The notes under the pieces: model-generated
Databases searched by the model: none
The model's input: the letters and a program-made list of their open reading frames with translations, nothing else
Told to the model about the DNA's origin: nothing
Translations under genes and position numbers: made by a program
Assembly (NCBI GenBank): GCA_051439425.1
Contig: JBFRWD010000167.1
Coordinates: 1-14,041, forward strand
Length of the DNA: 14,041 nucleotides
Direction: 5' to 3'
DNA from: Synechococcus sp.
Lineage (GTDB): Bacteria > Cyanobacteriota > Cyanobacteriia > Thermostichales > PCC-7336
In this document: positions 3,585 to 14,041 of the stretch, one piece after another
How positions within the stretch are numbered: position 1 is the first letter of the stretch
Layout: each line of letters starts with the position of its first letter

Positions 3585-3636
3585 GAGGGAATTTCCCTCG
3601 GGTATCTGTTGCAGTTTCAGCAGTGCAAATGCACTG
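3585..3636 (+). promoter_or_regulatory. Two palindromes immediately upstream of the Rep-like start
   Basis: GAGGGAA-t-TTCCCTC (3585-3599) and CAGTGCA-aa-TGCACTG (3621-3636); ATG at 3645. Confidence 0.4.
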
Positions 3637-3644
3637 TACTTATT

Positions 3645-4625
3645 ATGGCGTCTATTAAAGTAGATGGGCCGTTTTTTGCCTTAACTCCAGATTTATTCGA
3701 TCGCCTTTTAAACCTCAATCTCACACGCAATCAATTTCGAATATTTCTCTGGTTTACCACCCGCGATTGGGCGGGCGATCGCTGGGTAGATTTCGACCCG
3801 TCGCAGGTGATGGCCGATTGCCAAGTCAGCCGCAGCAGCTACTACGGAACGATGGCCAAATTCATCGAATGCGGACTGCTCTGCGTCCGCGATCGCTCCT
3901 CCCAGTTCGTCAACCGCCTGGGCTCCCAACATTCCAAATTCCAGGACACCCAGTCCAGAAATCTGGACTCCCAATCCAAAAAACCGGACGCACTGTCCGA
4001 AAAACCGGACGTTCAACAGCCAAAGCCACCGCCGTTAGTGGGTTCTGGCGTACCTCAAACTCAGTCAAACCATTTCAACCTCTCTCAAACCGACTCGGGG
4101 TCAGTAGGCGAGCGCCCACCAGAGAGAGAAAACGCATTCGCTTTTGAAAACCAAACAACCGTTAGAGAAGAAACGCAGCCGCAAGAGGATCTGGCTAACG
4201 TTCAATCGGGCAATCTCCAAGACTGTCTGCAATCTTTCAAACACCAGGACTTCCCCCGCCGCGCCGCCGTCGCAGTGTTGGAGCAAGTTGCTGAGGAAGT
4301 GCCGCAGTTCTGGCAGTGGGTGAAGGACAAGGGGGCGAAGCTGCCCGATCCAGTCAAGAGCTACGAGTTGTGGGGGGCAGCCCAGATTCGCACAGGACAG
4401 ATGGCAGTGTGGTTTGACGAGTGGTTAGAGAGACAACTGGAGGCTCAGGCGATCGCTGTTAAATCCAAGCCGGTGGCCGCGGTGGAGGCTACTCCGGTAA
4501 CTCCGCTCATTCGGTTGCAGACCTGGTGGAATATGAAGCTGTTTGGGAAGGTCAGGGAGGCGATCGCGACTCATCCTGACTGGGGAATTGAGTTAACCGA
4601 TGCGGGACCACAGTTGGCGTTCTAG
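3645..4625 (+). CDS. Putative replication initiator / winged-helix DNA-binding protein (lambda O-like architecture)
   Basis: Likely start ATG 3645. N-terminal wHTH (LTRNQFRIFLWF...QVSRSSYYGTMAKFIECGLL), then a low-complexity linker encoded by 21-bp repeats, then a helical C-terminal domain. Confidence 0.65.
   Translation: MASIKVDGPFFALTPDLFDRLLNLNLTRNQFRIFLWFTTRDWAGDRWVDFDPSQVMADCQVSRSSYYGTMAKFIECGLLCVRDRSSQFVNRLGSQHSKFQDTQSRNLDSQSKKPDALSEKPDVQQPKPPPLVGSGVPQTQSNHFNLSQTDSGSVGERPPERENAFAFENQTTVREETQPQEDLANVQSGNLQDCLQSFKHQDFPRRAAVAVLEQVAEEVPQFWQWVKDKGAKLPDPVKSYELWGAAQIRTGQMAVWFDEWLERQLEAQAIAVKSKPVAAVEATPVTPLIRLQTWWNMKLFGKVREAIATHPDWGIELTDAGPQLAF
3933..4010. repeat. Four iteron-like repeats with 21-bp period inside the Rep-like gene
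   Basis: TCCAAATTCCAGGAC (3933), TCCAGAAATCTGGAC (3954), TCCAAAAAACCGGAC (3975), TCCGAAAAACCGGAC (3996). Copy 2 forms the perfect dyad GTCCAGA-aa-TCTGGAC. Confidence 0.8.
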
Positions 4626-6251
4626 TCAGTCAGTACCAGTAGCCTCCAGTGGAGCTGATTTACCAAGAGTAGCTACCGCGCCTGCAGAATCAGCCAGCGC
4701 TGTCTGAGATGGTCGATTTGCTTCTGCCTGCAAGAAATCAAAAACAGCTTGAGGGTTCATCAAAAACTGGGGATTTGCCTCTAATTTATTTTGAATTTCC
4801 GTTGATACTACAGTCGTAAAGACCTGACTCTTATCGTTCTCATCAGTGACCTTTACGATTATGAGCTTGCCGACAAGCAAAGCAATATTGTCAAATTCTT
4901 TGACCCTATCTAGCAACTCAGCAGTTACCTTCCCCAACTTCTCTGTATTCACTACCCCAGCCTTTTCTAATTGGGCTTCGAGATTAGCCTTCCCGCGATT
5001 AGCCATATCTTTGGTAGTTTCGTAAATCTCGGCCTTCCTTTCAGGCGTCAAAAACCTCGAAATCCCATATCGAATTCGTTTAAAAAGTGAGCCACGTTTT
5101 TTATCTATAACCTCTTCCTGCTCATAGCCAAGGACGGCCATGTAGCGCTCGATGGCAGCTTCTAATGCTTGTTCTTTTTCAAGGTCAACGCCGCGATCGA
5201 GGATATTTATGCTGATTATTTCATTGAGCCATTCAAGCTCTGTTCCTGCATGAATAGCTCCTATAAGGTTGGCTCCTATAAGGTTGGCTCCTGTTAGGTT
5301 GGCTCCTGTTAGGTTGGCTTCTTCGAGGTGGGCTACGTAGAGGTTGGCTCCTGTGAGGTTGGCTCCATAGAGGTTGGCTCCATAGAGGTAGCCTCCGTAG
5401 AGGTTGGCTTTTTCAAGGTTGGCTTCTGTTAGATTGGCGTTTTTGAGATTGACTTCTGTTAAGTTGGCTCTTTCGAGGTTGCCTCTTTCGAGGTTACCTC
5501 TTTCGAGGTTGCCTCTGAAGAGGTTGGCTCTTTCGAGGTTGCCTCTTTCGAGGTTGCCTCTGAAGAGGTTAGCTCTTTCGAAGTAGGCCCCTGTGAGGTT
5601 GGCTCCTGTGAGGTTGGCTCCTGTGAGGTTGGCTTCTGTAAGGTTGGCTTTTTCGAGGTTGGCTCCTTCGAGATTGGCTTCTTCGACGTTGGCTTCTTTG
5701 AGGTTGGCTTCTTCGAGGTTGGCTCCTGTGAGGTTGGCTCCTGTGAGGTTAGCTCCTGTGAGGTTGGCTCCGTAGAAGTAGTTTATGTGGAGGTTGGCTC
5801 TGTGGAGGTTGGCTCCTGTGAGGTTGGCTCTGTAGAGGTTGGCTCCTTCCAGATTGGCTTCTGTGAGGTTGGCTCTGTAGAGGTTGGCTCCTTCCAGATT
5901 GGCTCTGTAGAGGAAGGCTCCTATGAGGTTGGACCCTATGAAGTTGGCTCCTATGAGGTTGGATCCTTCGAGGTTGGATCCTATGAAGTTGGATCCATAG
6001 AGGTTGGCTCCTGTAAGGTTGGCTCCTGTAAGGTTGGCTTCTTCGAGGTTGGCTCCTGTAAGGTTGGCTCCTGTAAGGTTGGCTCCTATGAGGTTGGCTT
6101 TTGCGAGATTGGCTCCTATGAGGTTGGCTTCTTCGAGGTTGACCGCGACCCCAGGATTTTGTTCGCGCCAAGCATTCCAAACCTGTGGCCCTTGACGAAG
6201 AATTTCCAACAAATCAAGGTTATCTAGATCGACAAGAGTTGTGGTCGCCAT
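4626..6251 (-). CDS. Pentapeptide repeat protein with ~200-aa C-terminal domain of unknown function
   Basis: [19 protein letters not shown] cap, ~59 A(N/D)Lxx pentads, then a non-repetitive domain. Start ATG 6251 or TTG 6257 (GAGGT RBS). Confidence 0.92.
5259..6143. repeat. 15-bp coding tandem repeat array (~59 units)
   Basis: Units such as AGGTTGGCTCCTGTG recur in strict 15-nt register, with 45-nt higher-order duplications. Confidence 0.95.
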
Positions 6252-6423
6252 GGGCAAGAGCTACCTCGTTAATCTGCTGAGTCACTAGACCTTACTAACC
6301 TTTTCTCCGTCTTTACAACCGAAAAGAGTACAAATTACTCCCACTCTGGCAACAAAAAATACTCGCAACAAGCAGTTCAAAACGCTACTCGTATCCTTGC
6401 TTCGCTAACTCAACCTGCGAATT

Positions 6424-6435
6424 GAGCAATTGCTC
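6424..6435. promoter_or_regulatory. 12-bp perfect palindrome in the divergent promoter region
   Basis: GAGCAATTGCTC about 100 bp upstream of the ATPase start; GAGTA-N5-TACTC also occurs at 6326-6340. Confidence 0.3.
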
Positions 6436-6536
6436 CCTCTTCAGCACCCGATCGCCACTGAAGACAATTCACACTGTCAACATTTATACTCTCAATCCAA
6501 GCAGACCCTTTTTGTTTTCCCGTCCAAAACCCAACA

Positions 6537-7415
6537 GTGAACCCATCAGGAATCGACACCACAACGAACCAGGAACTATCCCTAATCGGTGCCGCGTCTT
6601 CCCGTTGCTACAGAGAGAGTGAGGAAAAAATTTCTCTCGGGGCGTTGGAGAAGGGCGAAAGTCTGCTGCTGGTAGGCGAGCAAGGGTGTGGAAAGACGTT
6701 CCTGGCTCGGCGTCTGATGGCGGGGTTACAGGGTTCTGTGCGCTGGCGGGTGCTGTTGGATGGGGGCGAGACGGTCAAAGAATTCGTGGCTGGCTTCGCT
6801 GAGGCGATCGCGATTGACCCCTACAACGAAGCGGGGAACATTTTGCCTACCACCAAGCTCCGCCCGGAGATCGAGGCAACGATTCGGAATAATCCGACGG
6901 ACGTGGCACTGATTGTGGACGATGCCAATCACCTCTCGAAAACGATCCGGTTATGGCTGTCGAAGTTGGTTGACCTTGGGTTACCGGTATTGCTATTGGC
7001 CACTCGTCCGCCCAACCGCGATATCTTCCGCAAGCTGCCCCGCATTGAGCTGGAGCCGTTGGGGGAGGAGGACATTCGCGAGATGCTGTTCCGGGCGGGG
7101 GGAGATCGCGGGATCGTCATGAGCCCTGCCAAACTTGCAGAGCTGTCGCAGCGGTGCGGGGGGAATCCTCAGTTAGCGAAGCGGGTTGTGACTGAGGAGT
7201 ATCTCAAGTTGCGGCATGTAGGCCCCGACCACACGTTGTTTATTGATGGGGTGCCGTTCCTGCTGGCTGCCGCTGCTTGTCTGGTGATTCTGCGCTACGT
7301 GGGCCTCGGCACTGGGGATCGCAATCTCTATCTGATTGGGGGTATGAGTACGGCGTTTGTCATGGTGGTGCGGGTGTTCGCCACCCAGGTTCCGAAGCGG
7401 GGCAGTCGATTATGA
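6537..7415 (+). CDS. AAA+ (ExeA/AAA_22-like) ATPase with two C-terminal TM helices
   Basis: Walker A GEQGCGKT, Walker B LIVDDAN, IELEPL and GGNP motifs; hydrophobic hairpin VPFLLAAAACLVIL...LYLIGGMSTAFVMVVRVF; no ABC LSGGQ signature. Start uncertain. Confidence 0.88.
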   Translation: MNPSGIDTTTNQELSLIGAASSRCYRESEEKISLGALEKGESLLLVGEQGCGKTFLARRLMAGLQGSVRWRVLLDGGETVKEFVAGFAEAIAIDPYNEAGNILPTTKLRPEIEATIRNNPTDVALIVDDANHLSKTIRLWLSKLVDLGLPVLLLATRPPNRDIFRKLPRIELEPLGEEDIREMLFRAGGDRGIVMSPAKLAELSQRCGGNPQLAKRVVTEEYLKLRHVGPDHTLFIDGVPFLLAAAACLVILRYVGLGTGDRNLYLIGGMSTAFVMVVRVFATQVPKRGSRL

Positions 7416-8470
7416 TGGCCCGCTCCACGATCGCCTTCAGTGTGTCGCTGGGGGCTCTGATTCTGGCGACCACGTCTCCAGCAGAGTTGGCAGTCTGTGC
7501 TGGGGCGTCGCTGCTGCCCGATGTAGATATGAGTCGCAGCTATGCCGGTCGATTTTTGCCGTGGGTGGCCCGGTGGCTGGAGCACCGCTGGGCGCACCGG
7601 ACCATCACCCACTCGTTTGTGGCCAGCATTGCGATCGCTGCGGTGTTGTGGCCCCTCAACTTAGTCGGTCTGGGTTGGGTGTGGCGGGCGGTGGTGTGTG
7701 GCTATTCGTTGGGTTGGTTTTCGGACACGTTTACCAAGGCGGGTGTCTGTGCCTTTTGGCCTGCCCCCCATCGGTTGGTGATGGGCAAGAATCCCCGCTA
7801 CCGATTGGAAACGGGCAGCCGTGCGGAAAACTGGGTGTTCGGCTTCCTATTAATGGCCTGCTGTGGCGCGATCGCTCTGCAGATTCAGGGGGGCATTTTT
7901 AAGGTGTTTTCCCAGGCGTTAGCCATGCCTGCGGGAGCGGTGTCCGCTTACGAAGAAGTGGCGTTTACCCATCGGGCGCAGTTGGAGATCCTGAACGGAT
8001 TTGAAGCGGCCACCCTACAACCCATTCGCCACCAGCGCTACGACATCGTCAAGCGCATCAGCACCTACGACCTATTGGTCAGAGACCGGGATCGCTTCTT
8101 TCAGGCGGGGACGGGATCGGATGTGCACTTGCATGTGAAGCGGGCGCGGGTGCTAGCAGGGGAGCCGGTGCAGTTGGAGGTGGCGGAGGCGTATCCGTCC
8201 TATGTAGATGTGACAGACGTGCTGGAGCCCTACCGAGATCGCGAGGTGTATGTCACCGGTCGGCTGGAGTTGAAGGGGGTGTATAACCTGCCCACGGCCA
8301 ACAGCCCGTCCAGTTTTGCGGTGGTGCGGTTCCAGTACACCAGCCCCGGTGAGGGGGTGGCGCTGTTGGAGAGTTGCCCGATTGAGGTGGCGATCGCCGA
8401 GCTGTCGGAGTTCTACGCCACCACCGGAGAGTTGCAGTTTTTGATTACTAGCGAGGTTGACGATGTTTAA
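7412..8470 (+). CDS. YdjM-like inner-membrane metal-dependent hydrolase with C-terminal soluble extension
   Basis: ATGA overlap with the ATPase stop supports start 7412; LLPDVD, HRTITHS and DTFTKAGV...WP motifs among several TM helices; ~150-aa beta-rich tail. Confidence 0.85.
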   Translation: MMARSTIAFSVSLGALILATTSPAELAVCAGASLLPDVDMSRSYAGRFLPWVARWLEHRWAHRTITHSFVASIAIAAVLWPLNLVGLGWVWRAVVCGYSLGWFSDTFTKAGVCAFWPAPHRLVMGKNPRYRLETGSRAENWVFGFLLMACCGAIALQIQGGIFKVFSQALAMPAGAVSAYEEVAFTHRAQLEILNGFEAATLQPIRHQRYDIVKRISTYDLLVRDRDRFFQAGTGSDVHLHVKRARVLAGEPVQLEVAEAYPSYVDVTDVLEPYRDREVYVTGRLELKGVYNLPTANSPSSFAVVRFQYTSPGEGVALLESCPIEVAIAELSEFYATTGELQFLITSEVDDV

Positions 8471-9050
8471 GCAGTTGCTGGAGACAATCCGAGCCAGCCG
8501 CCGACTGGAGCCCACAGTGCGCAGGCTATCCAGATTCATCGAGTCCCGAACGGGGGTCTCCGTGCCTCTGTTGGCACCTCCGCCGCCTTACATTCCCAAC
8601 CGTCCCAATTACCGCCGCCGCCAAGCAGTGTTTGCCGCCCTCGATCGCGCCTGGGAAACCTACGGCTATCGCTCTGTCACTGACCTGCAGAAGTTGGTGA
8701 AGCAGGATACCGGTAAGGGGTGCTCGCGGCGATTGGTGTGCGAGTGGCGTCGGGAGCAGGGCAAGACCGACAAGCGTAGAGATGCCGTCTACCGTCATCT
8801 GGATAAAGCGCGGGCCTCCGGTCTGCGTAGTTATGCCGAATTGCGAGAATTTGTGCGAAAACACTCTGGCACCGGCTGCGGAAGCGAGTTAATTCTGGCT
8901 TGGAAGAAGTCGAGGGGGATCGAGATTAATAAGAGAGTTCGCAATGTCGATTCGGAAAATATATCAGTTGTATGCAGCGATTCTGGGGATGGCACTTGGC
9001 CTATCCCTCCCCACCTTCGCTCAGCGGCCCCCTCAGCCAAGGGTGCTTGA
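8463..9050 (+). CDS. Basic protein with two tandem HTH-like repeats, probable DNA-binding
   Basis: GAGG RBS before ATG 8463; repeats RRQAVFAALDRA...VKQDTGKGCSRRLVCEWRREQG and RRDAVYRHLDKA...VRKHSGTGCGSELILAWKKSRG. Confidence 0.75.
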   Translation: MFKQLLETIRASRRLEPTVRRLSRFIESRTGVSVPLLAPPPPYIPNRPNYRRRQAVFAALDRAWETYGYRSVTDLQKLVKQDTGKGCSRRLVCEWRREQGKTDKRRDAVYRHLDKARASGLRSYAELREFVRKHSGTGCGSELILAWKKSRGIEINKRVRNVDSENISVVCSDSGDGTWPIPPHLRSAAPSAKGA

Positions 9051-9696
9051 GTGGACGGTCACGCTGGATGACCCTTCAGAGTTGTTGGTGGGTGAAGGGG
9101 ACAGCATCGAACCCGGACAACCGGTTGTGGTCAGAACCAATGCCCTACGCCAGTTGGAATCTCGCAAAGACCGGTTGAATGTCCAACTCGATCGCCTGCA
9201 ACTAGTGGATCTAAATGTCCCGGCGCTGCCTGCAGATGTGGAAGCTTACAGTGCTCGTTTAGAGAGAGAAAAGTTCGAGTACGAGAACGCCGAGCGTCAG
9301 GTATCGGTGCAGCAAAACATTCTCGATTTGATGGCTGAGAACTCAAACGTGACTGAACTAGTCATAGACCACGAGACGGCCAGGTTACGTGAGCTACAGG
9401 CGATGGCGATAATTCAACGGTTGGAAGTGGAGGAAATTGAGGGTGAGATAGCAGATGCTAGCGCCCGTGCTGCCACGGCCACAGCCGCCGCCCGATTTGA
9501 CGCAAATGTCGAAGCTCAACGAAACGCGATCGCTCAATCCGGCGTGTTGGCTCAACTGGAGGCAGTCGATCGAGACATCCAAGCGGCGCAGGCGTTTACT
9601 GCTCCCTTCGGAGGCGAGATTTCCTATGTCGAATTCCTGGATGCTACTGACGGCAGGATTCGCGCTCTGTTGCATGTCCAGCCCAGCGATCGCTAA
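8944..9696 (+). CDS. HlyD/membrane-fusion-like periplasmic adaptor
   Basis: Signal peptide (MSIRK...LPTFA|Q); split lipoyl-like halves LLVGEGDSIEPGQPV and FTAPFGGEISYV around a long coiled coil. Confidence 0.8.
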   Translation: MSIRKIYQLYAAILGMALGLSLPTFAQRPPQPRVLEWTVTLDDPSELLVGEGDSIEPGQPVVVRTNALRQLESRKDRLNVQLDRLQLVDLNVPALPADVEAYSARLEREKFEYENAERQVSVQQNILDLMAENSNVTELVIDHETARLRELQAMAIIQRLEVEEIEGEIADASARAATATAAARFDANVEAQRNAIAQSGVLAQLEAVDRDIQAAQAFTAPFGGEISYVEFLDATDGRIRALLHVQPSDR

Positions 9697-10318
9697 CCCG
9701 CTCCCCTGCGAAGACCCCAGCGGCGAGTGCGTACAGCAGCTCCACCAATTAGCACTAGAAAACTCCCAGGCTTGGGAGGTACAGAATCAGGCGATCGCTA
9801 CCAGGCAAAAGACGTTGTGGGCGGAAGGATTGCCCAGGATTTCAGCCGGTCAGAACCTGCTGTCAGATGATTTCAGCGACGGGGCACAATTGAGTCTATC
9901 CATGGATCTAGTCAATCTATTCGGTGGTGGCGATCGGGCCCGGGCGCGGTTGTTTATTGCCGAATTGCAGGCGAGTCAGGCTGAGTTTTCGACAGATTTG
10001 ATGTTGGCGATCGCCGATCGGTTGGTTCAGTTGGATGCAGCAACTGGGGAAGTACTCAGCTTGCAGGATGAGTTAGAAAGTCGGCAGCAGGCGTTGCAGT
10101 TTTACGAGTTGGGGTATGCCTCGGGGCAGGGCTCAACGTTAGAGTATTTCGGGCTGCAGGATGCGATCGCTGGGGTGGAACGGGAGTTATGTGCGGCGTT
10201 GAATCAGGAGCAGTTGGCGCGATTGGAGTTGGTGTCTACTGTGGTGCCGGATGGGTTGGGGGATGTTGGGTTTGATGGGTGTCGGCAGGGGGTTGGAGAA
10301 ACGGCGCAGCGGTTTTGA
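9626..10318 (+). CDS. Short TolC/outer-membrane-efflux-like protein (single OEP repeat)
   Basis: GGAGG RBS then ATG 9626 (alternative 9641); signal peptide; ALENS, LPRISAG, LSLSMDLVNLFGGG and YASGQGSTLEYF resemble OEP motifs; only ~230 aa. Confidence 0.72.
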   Translation: MSNSWMLLTAGFALCCMSSPAIANPLPCEDPSGECVQQLHQLALENSQAWEVQNQAIATRQKTLWAEGLPRISAGQNLLSDDFSDGAQLSLSMDLVNLFGGGDRARARLFIAELQASQAEFSTDLMLAIADRLVQLDAATGEVLSLQDELESRQQALQFYELGYASGQGSTLEYFGLQDAIAGVERELCAALNQEQLARLELVSTVVPDGLGDVGFDGCRQGVGETAQRF

Positions 10319-10330
10319 AGTTGGTTGAAG

Positions 10331-11716
10331 TCAGCAGTCGTTTTCAAGTCGGTACCAGGAATATTCACATAGTTCTTCTGGTGAAAGCTCGTCGATGTGA
10401 ATCATGCCCGCAGCTTCAAAGTCAAAGTTTGGATCGGGGAAGCGATCAACTGTGAAATCGTTGTATACCGCTCCCTCCCAAATGGTGGAGCAGGGATAAA
10501 CGTCTCCATTTTCAAACGCTGTTTGAACCTCTTCATCTCTGAGATCCGGATTGCTTTCCCTGAAAATCTTGATACAGATTTCTTTTGATGAGTTCTCTTC
10601 ACTTGTGTATTTCACCCACCTGAAGTCCGCATCCTGAAGGTTGGCATACCCCAGGGATGCGTACTGAAGGTTGGCGAGCCCCATGTATGCGTCCTGAAGA
10701 TCGACCCCACCCAGGGATGCGTACTGAAGGTTAGCAGAATCCAGGGATGCGTACTGAAGGTTGGCACTCTCCAGATCTGCATCCTGAAGGTTGGCAAACC
10801 CCAGGTATGCGTACTGAAGGTTGGCGAACCCCAGGTATGCGTACTGAAGGTTGGCCCCACTCAGGACGCAGATCTGAAGGTTGGCACTCTCCAGATCTGC
10901 GTTCCGAAGGTCGGCACCCCCCAGGTATGCGTCCTGAAGGTCGGCACCCCCCAGGTATGCGTCCTGAAGGTTGGCATCCTCCAGGTATGCGTCCCGAAGG
11001 TTGGCATCCTCCAGGTCTACGTCCTGAAGGTCGGCACCCCCCAGGTATGCGTCCTGAAGGTTGGCGCGAGACAGGATCGAACCGGGTAATTGCAGCCCGC
11101 TTAGGAATGCCCCCGTACCTGTTACTTTCGTATCGGCCTCACCGTCGAGCCCTACATCCAAACCCGCAAGGCTTTGAGGTGGTTGTCGAATAATGCAACT
11201 TGGCCATCTATTCATGTCTCTACACAGAGGCCAAGGAAATCGCCACGGTCGAGACACCAAAAACTCGATCGCCTCTTTCCTCCCCCCATTACCCGGCTGC
11301 CCCGAAGCACTGGTAATGGTTTGCCAAGCCGTAAATACATCTTGCTCGTACCTGATGTCCTGATTGGCAATGAATGAGACAACGGCAATAGCAATACCCA
11401 CGCTGCCCACCACTTCAAAGATTTCGAAGATCGCAAGACTCTTGAACCAGCGCAATGCAGCTTCGAGTTTTCTTTCAACCTTGACCAAGGGGCCAGTTAC
11501 TCGGGCTGCTTCTCTCTTAAGCTGGCGTTCTGCTGTGACCCAGTAGTATTCATCTCGGTCATCCTGGCGACCATCGATATCCCATAGAAAAGCTGCTCTC
11601 TTCGCAATCCGCTCGCGAGAGATTCCAGGCTTGTCTTTCTTCTGCGAATACATTTGCCTGACGGCTTTTTGCAGCTCGGCCTTCCTGTCTTCTGAGCGAC
11701 TGTGTTCGCTTCGCAT
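10331..11716 (-). CDS. Membrane-anchored pentapeptide repeat protein with DUF2934-like N-terminal domain
   Basis: ERIAKRAAFLWDIDGRQDDRDEYYWVTAERQL (DUF2934-like), TM helix VVGSVGIAIAVVSFIA, AWQTI...GGRKEAIEFL cap, 30 pentads, acidic tail. Confidence 0.9.
   Translation of the reverse strand: MRSEHSRSEDRKAELQKAVRQMYSQKKDKPGISRERIAKRAAFLWDIDGRQDDRDEYYWVTAERQLKREAARVTGPLVKVERKLEAALRWFKSLAIFEIFEVVGSVGIAIAVVSFIANQDIRYEQDVFTAWQTITSASGQPGNGGRKEAIEFLVSRPWRFPWPLCRDMNRWPSCIIRQPPQSLAGLDVGLDGEADTKVTGTGAFLSGLQLPGSILSRANLQDAYLGGADLQDVDLEDANLRDAYLEDANLQDAYLGGADLQDAYLGGADLRNADLESANLQICVLSGANLQYAYLGFANLQYAYLGFANLQDADLESANLQYASLDSANLQYASLGGVDLQDAYMGLANLQYASLGYANLQDADFRWVKYTSEENSSKEICIKIFRESNPDLRDEEVQTAFENGDVYPCSTIWEGAVYNDFTVDRFPDPNFDFEAAGMIHIDELSPEELCEYSWYRLENDC
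10616..11065. repeat. 30-bp (2x15) coding tandem repeat array
   Basis: Units like CCAGGTATGCGTCCTGAAGGTCGGCACCCC, 15 in register, encoding alternating ANLQ(D/Y)/AYLGx pentads. Confidence 0.92.
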
Positions 11717-13147: not shown

Positions 13148-13468
13148 TCACCCCATAGCTTGCGATTGAATCTTCTCCGGTGTCAGCTGATATCCCAACG
13201 CCCTCATAATCGCGTTGATGCTGGCAAACTGCGGATTCCCATCTTCAGACAGCGCTTTCTGTAATCCCTTGCGGGATATTCCCGCCGCCTCAGCCGTCGC
13301 AGTAATTCCCTTCGCACGACTCACAATCCGCAGGGCGGAGAGTAACGCCCCCATGTCGCCATCTTGGGCGAATTCCTCAAACGAGATTTTCAAAAAATCG
13401 TCGATTTCCTCTGGATGCTCGCGATAGTACTCGGATGTGACGTCACTTAGGGTTCTGTAGTTACGCAT
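13148..13468 (-). CDS. Addiction-module antidote protein (HTH antitoxin, HI1420-like)
   Basis: Start ATG 13468; ALLSALRIVSRAKGITATAEAAGISRKGLQKALSEDGNPQFASINAIMRALG; 8-nt overlap with the toxin. Confidence 0.92.
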   Translation of the reverse strand: MRNYRTLSDVTSEYYREHPEEIDDFLKISFEEFAQDGDMGALLSALRIVSRAKGITATAEAAGISRKGLQKALSEDGNPQFASINAIMRALGYQLTPEKIQSQAMG

Positions 13469-13820
13469 TGTCCAAATAATCCCTCCAATACTCCTTTGCC
13501 GCTTGAATATCCTTCTGCTGACTGCTCTTATCCCCTCCACTCAGCAAAACCACGATGGTATTTTTGTCCTGCCCGAAATACACCCGATATCCGGGGCCAA
13601 AAAACATCCTCAACTCCGAAACCCCATCTCCCACACTTTGACAATCCCCGAAGTTCCCTTGCTCCAATCTCAGCAACCGAGCTTCAATCCGTTTTCTCCC
13701 CAGCCGATCCTTCAACCCTCTCAACCAGTCCGTAAACGGCTCGTAGCCTCGCTCATCGGCATAGACAATGACGACTTTTTGACTGCTTTCACCAGGCACA
13801 GGATACTGTCGCTGCTTCAT
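13461..13820 (-). CDS. RelE/ParE-superfamily addiction-module killer toxin (HI1419-like)
   Basis: PFTDWLRGLKD, RLEQGNFGDCQSVGDGVSELRMFFGPGYRVYF, LLSGGDKSSQQKDI. Start ATG 13820 or GTG 13799; the track's 13988 start lies in intron sequence. Confidence 0.93.
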   Translation of the reverse strand: MKQRQYPVPGESSQKVVIVYADERGYEPFTDWLRGLKDRLGRKRIEARLLRLEQGNFGDCQSVGDGVSELRMFFGPGYRVYFGQDKNTIVVLLSGGDKSSQQKDIQAAKEYWRDYLDNA

Positions 13821-13842
13821 TATATGCGTACCATAGTACGCA
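13819..13842 (-). promoter_or_regulatory. -10 box and adjacent operator palindrome of the third TA operon
   Basis: Minus-strand TATAAT at 13819-13824 abutting TGCGTAC-N4-GTACGCA (13825-13842). Confidence 0.6.
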
Positions 13843-13916
13843 GCACTGGGCCTCTTGCCCACACGCGAACGCAGAGGACACAGGCAAATAGCTCTGGGCA
13901 CGCCATCAGAGCCCAG

Positions 13917-14041
13917 ATTAGGGGTCGACGGAGCAGTTACCCGCTCCGCCTCCCATTCAAAACCGTGCATGCGAGTTTCCCAGCACACGGCTCCTCCTTA
14001 GTTAGCCAAAGTAGTAGGGCTAGCGACCCGAGTGGGGGGTC
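13917..14041 (-). mobile_element. 3' end of a group II intron (domains V and VI), continuing beyond the window
   Basis: Minus strand GAGCCGTGTGCTGGGAAACTCGCATGCACGGTTT (DV, 13960-13993; AGC triad, GAAA loop), then GGGAGGCGGAGC-GGGTAACT-GCTCCGTCGACCCCTAAT (DVI hairpin, AY terminus near 13917). Confidence 0.9.

Follow-up and report, generated by a model that had tools for sequence, protein, structure and literature searches.

A conserved cyanobacterial plasmid gene cluster combines an AAA+ protein and a YdjM-type membrane protein with a minimal periplasmic adaptor and a half-size TolC-like protein

Contig JBFRWD010000167.1 of Synechococcus sp. is in its entirety the window analyzed here (14,041 bases from a 4.8-Mb source genome that is 96% complete), and it carries five co-directional open reading frames (ORFs), p1 to p5, on the + strand between positions 6537 and 10318. 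Four of these genes, encoding an AAA+ protein (p1), a YdjM-type membrane protein (p2), a periplasmic adaptor (p4) and a TolC-like protein of the OEP family (p5), represent a core that travels together in cyanobacterial plasmids and in Acidobacteria. We propose that the products of all five genes make up one envelope-spanning apparatus, tripartite-like in its anatomy, built on a different inner-membrane base and engaged in a DNA-related task, a combined reading that we hold to be possible and rate somewhat below an even chance.

The five frames overlap successively by 4, 8, 107 and 71 nucleotides. The first, p1 (6537-7415), starts with GTG and encodes 292 residues, with an AAA+ (AAA_22) domain and a C-terminal membrane hairpin. 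The others start with ATG and encode a YdjM/DUF457 membrane domain followed by a family-specific C-terminal domain (p2, 7412-8470, 352 residues), a soluble protein with two copies of a domain of ~55 residues (p3, 8463-9050, 195 residues), a minimal HlyD/EmrA-type periplasmic adaptor (p4, 8944-9696, 250 residues) and a single OEP repeat, half a TolC protomer (p5, 9626-10318, 230 residues). That these are genes rather than chance frames is confirmed by the full-length relatives of p2, the recurring gene order and the conserved overlap of the adaptor and OEP genes, which is kept in annotated plasmids (68 nucleotides in pSYSX and 92 in Microcystis p1). The five genes had been taken for one unit in the first-pass annotation, and both the arrangement itself and the recurrence of this gene order in dozens of loci uphold that view. 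In the protein collection, p4 and p5 appear as shorter automatic gene calls of 235 and 138 residues; the family alignments favor the longer forms. A promoter-like site on the + strand (6461-6490; AAGACA, an 18-nucleotide spacer and TATACT), located 47 nucleotides 5' of the p1 start, is suggestive by its position alone, the number of such sites in 6100-10500 being at chance level (1 versus 1.6 expected from shuffles).

Of 400 other cyanobacterial genomes sampled, 29 contain full-length relatives of p2, and tblastn found the AAA gene adjoining the YdjM gene in 18 of 20 loci. Gene content was counted in two collections of loci, which are of the same kind and overlap and hence are not independent. 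The first consists of 30 extended loci, several of them cut by contig ends, recounted with family hidden Markov models: the AAA gene is found in 27 loci, the adaptor in 25, the OEP gene in 20 and an additional ATPase of ~360 residues, encoded between the YdjM and adaptor genes, in 18; all five families occur together in 13, and nine loci have the adaptor without this ATPase. The second was drawn from one genome per species (98 relatives, 80 loci kept), and counting was confined to 55 loci with flanks of at least 1.2 kb upstream and at least 3.5 kb downstream. Here the AAA gene is present in 50, the adaptor in 47, the OEP gene in 43, all four core genes in 39 and the extra ATPase in 31, with 20 loci having the adaptor and no extra ATPase. 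The 80 loci are mostly cyanobacterial, together with nine loci from metagenome-assembled genomes (MAGs) of Acidobacteria and one locus each from MAGs labelled Acetobacteraceae and Heliobacteriaceae; the Acidobacteria loci among the 55 all have the four core genes (6/6) and none has the extra ATPase. Synteny of the homologues is thus a property of the family. Also well supported is the reading of p1 and p2 as membrane proteins whose genes nearly always adjoin each other.

Is there a conventional pump in the neighborhood? No ABC, RND or MFS gene was detected among the window ORFs scanned (10 larger proteins and 11 small ORFs). Around the relatives, 108 of 141 large unassigned proteins encoded within 3.5 kb of core genes were scanned, 33 falling outside a size limit on the scan, and none of the 108 had a match to ABC, RND or MFS families at E <= 1e-6. 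The claim that a canonical pump is missing therefore extends from the window to the scanned neighbors of its relatives, with no routine pairing with an ABC or RND transporter.

The cluster is mainly a plasmid trait in the records at hand. Relatives of p2 are found in 49 PLSDB records, 48 of them plasmids typed as non-mobilizable (MOB-suite via PLSDB), relatives of p1 in 44 records, 42 of them so typed, and the extra ATPase at full length in 29 records. The hosts include Synechocystis 6803, with two copies on pSYSX, Synechococcus elongatus UTEX 3055 and PCC 11801, Picosynechococcus PCC 7002 (pAQ5), Microcystis, Nostoc and Anabaena. Both pSYSX copies fall within the coordinates that the pertinent part of PMC10899382 gives for a tandem duplication (4,092-27,731 and 58,810-82,449). 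Two gammaproteobacterial plasmids, Allochromatium pALVIN01 (locus L053) and Nitrosococcus plasmid A (L054), carry the order hypothetical gene, AAA gene and YdjM gene with no adaptor or OEP gene; since the pair occurs there without the other two, it is a module in its own right. These two plasmids also have phage-like genes (siphovirus Gp157, ssb), and in Nitrosococcus plasmid A a MazF-type toxin pair is inserted between the AAA and YdjM genes. A metagenome scan added at least 322 further relatives, none listed as closer to the window than ~35% identity; the same kind of scan with the p2 sequence alone found no relative, and p2 had no match in the phage collection.

The p1 protein matches the Pfam family AAA_22 (E 1.1e-11; 45.6 bits against a cut-off of 27) and has Walker A (GEQGCGKT) and Walker B (IVDD) motifs. 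Hydropathy places hydrophobic segments at residues 232-260 and 263-283, the second ending at residue 283 of 292. Since two such segments close the protein, p1 is predicted to be a cytoplasmic AAA+ domain with a lid region, held to the membrane by a C-terminal hairpin. Its nearest named relatives, RuvB in the PDB (3e-4 over residues 34-219) and a MuB-type 'DNA transposition protein' in PHROG (6e-6), are DNA-handling AAA+ proteins. Residues invariant across the family fall in the lid, in 'GGNPMLA' and in the membrane hairpin.

The p2 protein was described from the start as a YdjM-type polytopic protein, and this description stands on both a Pfam match to YdjM (PF04307; E 1.8e-19, 70.3 bits against a cut-off of 29, over the first ~155 residues) and conserved polar motifs. 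The membrane domain (residues 1 to ~160) contains the invariants P36, D37, D39, H62, R63, T66, H67 and D105 in 21 sequences, forming the motifs PDxD and HRxxTH. Hydrophobic segments at 1-29, 64-91 and 138-163 alternate with loops rich in lysine and arginine (36-67 and 105-140), and by the positive-inside rule these loops point to an N-in/C-out topology, probably with the polar motifs in the cytoplasm and the C-terminal domain in the periplasm. Pfam and PDB sequences offer no match for that domain (~165-352, ~190 residues) and the Atlas no usable one, and the whole protein has none among PDB sequences. A complex prediction for p2 and p4 scored 0.00, which carries no weight either way.

The p4 protein matches no Pfam family at E <= 1 and only HlyD in NCBIfam, at E 0.26. 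Its AlphaFold2 (AF2) model, built with 24 relatives, is confident (predicted local distance difference test score, pLDDT, 89.6) and consists of an N-terminal hydrophobic helix, a lipoyl half (strands 35-62), a long alpha-hairpin (65-215) and a second lipoyl half (strands 224-247), directly after which the chain ends, with no beta-barrel or membrane-proximal domain. Foldseek against the PDB returned EmrA (1.2e-5), HlyD (1.9e-5), MacA (1.9e-4) and LipC (1.3e-3). The model thus gives good support to p4 as a minimal membrane-fusion (periplasmic adaptor) protein, in agreement with its original designation as an HlyD-like adaptor. The N-terminus resembles a signal peptide, and the relatives read in the alignment as AxA type or lipobox type, with motifs common to 24 relatives; the hairpin of p4 is the shortest in its family. 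The adaptor-family profile had only weak coiled-coil matches among PDB sequences. Word-index homologue searches with p4 and p5 returned their own proteins and one fragment only, because the families are too divergent.

The p5 protein matches the Pfam family OEP (PF02321; E 1.2e-5, 25.6 bits against a cut-off of 22) in a single stretch covering model positions 2-182 of 187; relatives reach 24.1 and 25.1 bits, and others fall under the Pfam cut-off. Common to the family are a signal peptide, a cysteine pair (LPC...C) and, ahead of a long helix, the motif 'FGG(G/N)', and p5 follows the order helix, probable beta-hairpin, 'LFGGG' and long helical hairpin. In its AF2 model (pLDDT 78), helices span residues 33-68, 102-165 and 171-206, and the top Foldseek matches are OprM, OprJ, VceC, TolC and CusC (best E 6.4e-3). 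In VIA, p5 aligned over 168 residues to OprM 44-245, one of its two repeats, with Z 9.6, in the range below about 13 in which helical matches can be unspecific. The family profile found OprJ among PDB sequences (E 0.026), and a search of 1.84 billion proteins with it gave 352 cluster representatives at E <= 1e-3, of which the 150 best have 79-490 residues; by these matches, the family is small and stands apart from canonical TolC proteins. Relatives are annotated 'TolC family protein'. Hence p5 is well supported as a secreted single-repeat OEP protein, and its earlier naming as a mini-TolC was apt.

The p3 protein contains two domain copies (residues 46-100 and 105-169) that are 38% identical. 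Neither p3 nor six copies of the domain have a Pfam match, and there was no usable match in the Atlas. In the nearest relatives (L031-L033), tblastn and alignment locate the domain at the cytoplasmic N-terminus of the adaptor itself, and in L034 it closes the gene that precedes the ATPase gene. It had been called a tandem helix-turn-helix (HTH) protein; the duplication is real, whereas the HTH assignment comes down to a weak profile match to KfrA_N-type DNA-binding N-termini (hhalign probability 12%, E 0.0024), which by sequence is a lead only.

The operons of relatives contain further components. The extra ATPase is a P-loop protein that looks soluble and short; no other component is as well conserved (mean column identity, 52%). 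This ATPase matches the Pfam families TrwB_AAD_bind (to 4e-11), DUF87 and FtsK_SpoIIIE, and its best PDB matches are DptH (4.6e-20) and HerA proteins, with EccC5 at 3e-5. Labelled by PGAP as a 'type IV secretion system DNA-binding domain-containing protein', it is, judging from these matches, a member of the FtsK/HerA superfamily rather than a typical coupling protein. Upstream of many operons (21 of 30 and 26 of 55 loci) is a gene for a family of ~200 residues with a conserved C-terminal half and swappable N-terminal domains of the HTH type (KfrA_N at 1.5e-9 in L050). Secreted four-cysteine proteins of ~212 residues are encoded convergently to the operon in 13 of the 30 loci of the first collection and in 22 of the 55 of the second (including L036, L042, L094, L096, L106, L125 and L132). 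They show an internal duplication, with ANxCG...C occurring twice, and often stand in tandem with a larger paralogue of 350-580 residues; apart from F5/8 type C domains in one large form, the family has no match in Pfam or PDB sequences. In L099, L118 and L120, operons of the Nostoc type, a Wzy_C (O-antigen ligase-like) membrane protein and a protein of ~600 residues, encoded downstream of the OEP gene, take the place of the four-cysteine genes. Secreted nucleases of three unrelated families, with signal peptides or lipoboxes, adjoin the operon as well: SNase in nine of the 30 loci of the first collection and 17 of the 55 of the second, and in pSYSX as the 'thermonuclease' after the cluster; Endonuclease_NS as the gene immediately following OEP in L089 and L104, and in pAQ5 ~1.2 kb past the OEP gene; and an S1/P1 nuclease beside L086. 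HNH endonuclease genes in or beside the operon in L047, L077 and L120 may be mobile insertions of the homing type. The neighbors commonly include ParA/ParB and actin-like genes, and often restriction-modification, McrBC, Abi and toxin-antitoxin genes.

How could these parts work together? In the apparatus that we propose, the AAA+ protein, cytoplasmic and anchored by its hairpin, and p2 would form an inner-membrane base in place of an ABC, RND or MFS pump, with the metal-type motif of the YdjM domain facing the cytoplasm and the C-terminal domain of p2 in the periplasm. The adaptor p4 would bridge the periplasm and p5 would be the outer membrane duct; as each chain has one repeat, half the share of a TolC protomer, six chains would be needed for a TolC-like duct, which is probably a hexamer. 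The task that we assign to it, again short of an even chance, is the movement or handling of the element's DNA at or across the envelope, be it export, transfer or uptake. The link to DNA would be made by p3 in the window and by the upstream adaptor protein and the FtsK/HerA-type ATPase in relatives. We favor a DNA-related task because the upstream adaptors have swappable DNA-binding-type domains joined to a conserved, machine-facing half, because some periplasmic adaptors carry the p3 domain at their cytoplasmic end and p1 has relatives among DNA-type AAA+ proteins, and because an FtsK/HerA ATPase is frequent, unrelated nucleases have been recruited repeatedly and the setting is plasmids. The idea of DNA or nucleoprotein transfer without a type IV secretion system (T4SS), raised in the first-pass annotation, accordingly finds circumstantial support in the relatives; the window copy lacks their FtsK/HerA ATPase, DNA-binding-type adaptors and nucleases, and the idea stays a hypothesis.

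Several observations weigh against this proposal. Conservation in the AAA+ family does not extend to the Walker A and B motifs, which are altered in some relatives, and the P-loop region is gone in L046, L055, L058 and the pAQ5 protein, a homologue of 234 residues annotated as hypothetical. Some versions of the cluster thus appear to be without an evident ATPase, and the suggestion that the AAA+ protein is the motor does not fit the family as a whole. The FtsK/HerA-type ATPase was not found in the window genome (96% complete) with a single protein or a 14-sequence profile, and of the 47 loci among the 55 that have an adaptor, 20 lack it. A quick tree built from the YdjM-type proteins places the loci with an adaptor and without this ATPase in one clade of 20; because they form a clade of their own, the core must work without an FtsK/HerA-type ATPase. 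No relaxase or T4SS gene is evident and no relaxase or mating-pair genes were seen, the window proteins scanned having no Pfam match to a relaxase, a VirB4-type ATPase or a coupling protein. On present sequence comparisons, p3 is unproven as a DNA-binding protein. The expected beta-hairpin of p5 (residues 73-96) has a pLDDT below 50 in the monomer model. In the same quick tree, p2 of the window stands by itself, its branch being very long (1.86, the longest), and its residue 6 is T in place of an H found in at least 90% of the 21 sequences. Finally, the secreted proteins and nucleases encoded nearby could be the cargo and not helpers.

The last point leads to protein export. The apparatus might carry the four-cysteine proteins and/or the nucleases from the periplasm over the outer membrane in the manner of MacAB-TolC, with the HTH-type proteins as regulators. 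An adaptor with a TolC-like duct is classically an export device, the convergent and often tandem four-cysteine genes and the signal peptides or lipoboxes of the adjacent nucleases would be in keeping with such cargo, and FtsK-type ATPases also power protein secretion, to which the EccC5 match of the extra ATPase corresponds. However, the window has none of these cargo genes, and the candidates are missing from 33 of 55 (four-cysteine) and 38 of 55 (SNase) loci. Export also leaves unexplained why the upstream protein combines a conserved C-terminus with swappable N-termini and why the p3 domain is fused to the adaptor. We consider it somewhat unlikely, and continue to prefer a DNA-related task.

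A different question is whether the window copy still functions, whatever the family does. It is the most reduced and divergent version seen; because it has no extra ATPase, upstream adaptor, four-cysteine protein or nuclease gene, it may work differently or be in decay. Decay into a remnant would agree with these losses, with the long p2 branch and the loss of the near-invariant H6, with the shortest adaptor hairpin in the family and with the finding of no relative above ~35% identity in genomes or metagenomes among the matches listed. On the other hand, all five frames are intact, full length relative to their families and tightly overlapped, the other invariants of p2 and both Walker motifs of p1 are kept, the models of p4 and p5 are confident, and versions without the HerA-type ATPase constitute a large conserved clade. 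We rate decay as rather unlikely; its likelihood overlaps those of the other readings, and the likelihoods do not sum to one.

Least probable is plasmid defense or exclusion, in which an envelope complex would sense or block incoming DNA (phage, transforming DNA or rival plasmids), using nucleases in the periplasm as its effectors and HerA-type ATPases like those of known defense systems: the best solved relatives of the extra ATPase are defense proteins (DptH at 4.6e-20 and HerA of defense complexes), restriction-modification, McrBC, Abi and toxin-antitoxin genes are often nearby, nucleases adjoin the operon and p1 weakly matches mads8 (3.6e-5), but p2 to p5 have no PADLOC match, no relative occurs in the phage collection, defense genes are abundant on cyanobacterial plasmids anyway, so that the neighborhood is weak evidence, and to our knowledge an adaptor with an outer membrane duct is not a feature of known defense systems.

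If the apparatus does act on DNA, a bolder and in our view unlikely extension is that it provides a previously undescribed route for DNA over the diderm envelope, on plasmids lacking relaxase and T4SS genes. A DNA-binding adaptor would hand plasmid DNA to the AAA+/YdjM base, helped in many versions by the FtsK/HerA-type translocase; the DNA would then pass the minimal adaptor and the hexameric half-TolC duct, and outside the cell, secreted nucleases and surface proteins that bear lectin domains would come into play. According to the relevant part of PMC8600333, ~88% of 424 cyanobacterial plasmids lack a full set of conjugation or mobilization genes. The cluster sits on just such plasmids. A route of this kind, if true, could explain the spread of 'non-mobilizable' cyanobacterial plasmids, for example by export followed by natural transformation, and in p5 the single-repeat ancestor of TolC would have a living representative. 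The hypothesis is directly testable, because the cluster sits on plasmids of genetically tractable strains, including pSYSX of Synechocystis 6803, pAQ5 of PCC 7002 and S. elongatus UTEX 3055.

The three toxin-antitoxin pairs encoded on this one 14-kb contig fit a plasmid or a mobile island: a MazE-type antitoxin with a PIN protein (456-1108), HigB with an HTH antitoxin (1234-1906) and a Gp49-like protein with an HI1420-type antidote (13148-13988). Together with the typing of 48 of the 49 PLSDB records of p2 relatives as non-mobilizable plasmids, they agree with the assignment of the machine to a mobile element. A search for terminal repeats that would signal a circular contig found none of at least 20 nucleotides, and megablast of the whole window against plasmids gave no match. 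A Rep-like ORF (3609-4625, + strand, 338 residues) has no Pfam match and a weak DnaD-like PHROG match (E 0.011). The N-terminal third of this ORF has weak relatives in four cyanobacterial plasmid records, three of which carry the operon as well, ~20 to 65 kb distant. Since the ORF lies outside the conserved operon neighborhood, the linkage to a Rep-like gene once put forward is not borne out. The operon is flanked by two pentapeptide-repeat genes on the - strand (4626-6257 and 10331-11716, the latter also with DUF2934), whose repeats give long spurious ORFs in other frames. Pentapeptide proteins near or in related operons (L099, between the ATPase and adaptor genes; L102; L119) may be a coincidence in cyanobacteria. 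These proteins and the GCGATCGC-rich repeats of the window give the genome a cyanobacterial look. A further ORF on the - strand (2225-2698, 157 residues) has an N-terminal hydrophobic segment, no Pfam match and a weak match to PADLOC CARF-TM (E 0.001).

How does the cluster compare with known systems? No paper on the cluster, its function or a single-repeat or half-size TolC was found in a literature search that left supplements outside; a preprint taken for a YdjM/DUF457 study (bioRxiv 10.1101/2025.11.13.688252) concerns DUF4579, not DUF457, in the portion available. As a catalogued anti-phage system the cluster was rejected, since in PADLOC-DB 2.0 p1 had weak, P-loop-level matches only (the best being to mads8) and p2, p3, p4 and p5 had none. 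The ATPase of the operon relatives resembles the coupling proteins TrwB/VirD4 in its matches to TrwB_AAD_bind, FtsK_SpoIIIE and DUF87, but is closer to DptH and HerA than to any other solved protein; an FtsK-like conjugation ATPase is known in TraB of Streptomyces. ExeA/GspA of type II secretion has an AAA_22 domain, one membrane span and a periplasmic peptidoglycan-binding domain. With it p1 shares an AAA_22-type ATPase tied to the inner membrane, but p1 ends in a two-segment hairpin with no peptidoglycan-binding domain, and there is no secretin or GspB-like partner. An identity with ExeA/GspA was therefore rejected, the AAA domain alone being matched; of the earlier 'ExeA-like AAA+ ATPase with a membrane hairpin', the AAA_22 domain and the hairpin remain, and the likeness to ExeA falls with the periplasmic domain that p1 does not have.

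Escherichia coli YdjM, an SOS-regulated inner-membrane protein (PF04307), shares with p2 the membrane domain with its PDxD, HRxxTHS and D motifs, while p2 differs in its extra C-terminal domain of ~190 residues and in its obligate pairing with an AAA+ gene. TolC and OprM (PF02321) are similar to p5 in the Pfam match, the signal peptide, the order of helix, probable beta-hairpin, 'FGGG' and long helix, and the Foldseek results; p5, by contrast, has 230 residues and a single repeat, whereas the TolC trimer of two-repeat protomers gives 12 strands. A single-repeat OEP family bears on the origin of TolC by internal duplication. The closest likeness in overall plan is to the tripartite systems HlyBD-TolC, MacAB-TolC and EmrAB-TolC, with which the cluster shares a lipoyl/alpha-hairpin adaptor gene adjoining an OEP-family gene and an inner-membrane component with a probable periplasmic domain (p2). 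It departs from them in a base made of an AAA+ hairpin protein and a YdjM-type protein with no ABC, RND or MFS member, in an adaptor with no beta-barrel or membrane-proximal domain, and in a duct protein with one OEP repeat instead of two. Whatever its cargo, the cluster suggests that the adaptor/TolC design can couple to an inner-membrane base other than ABC, RND or MFS proteins; a tripartite envelope system with such a base and a half-size duct protein would be new, and a new kind of system if it is DNA that is moved.

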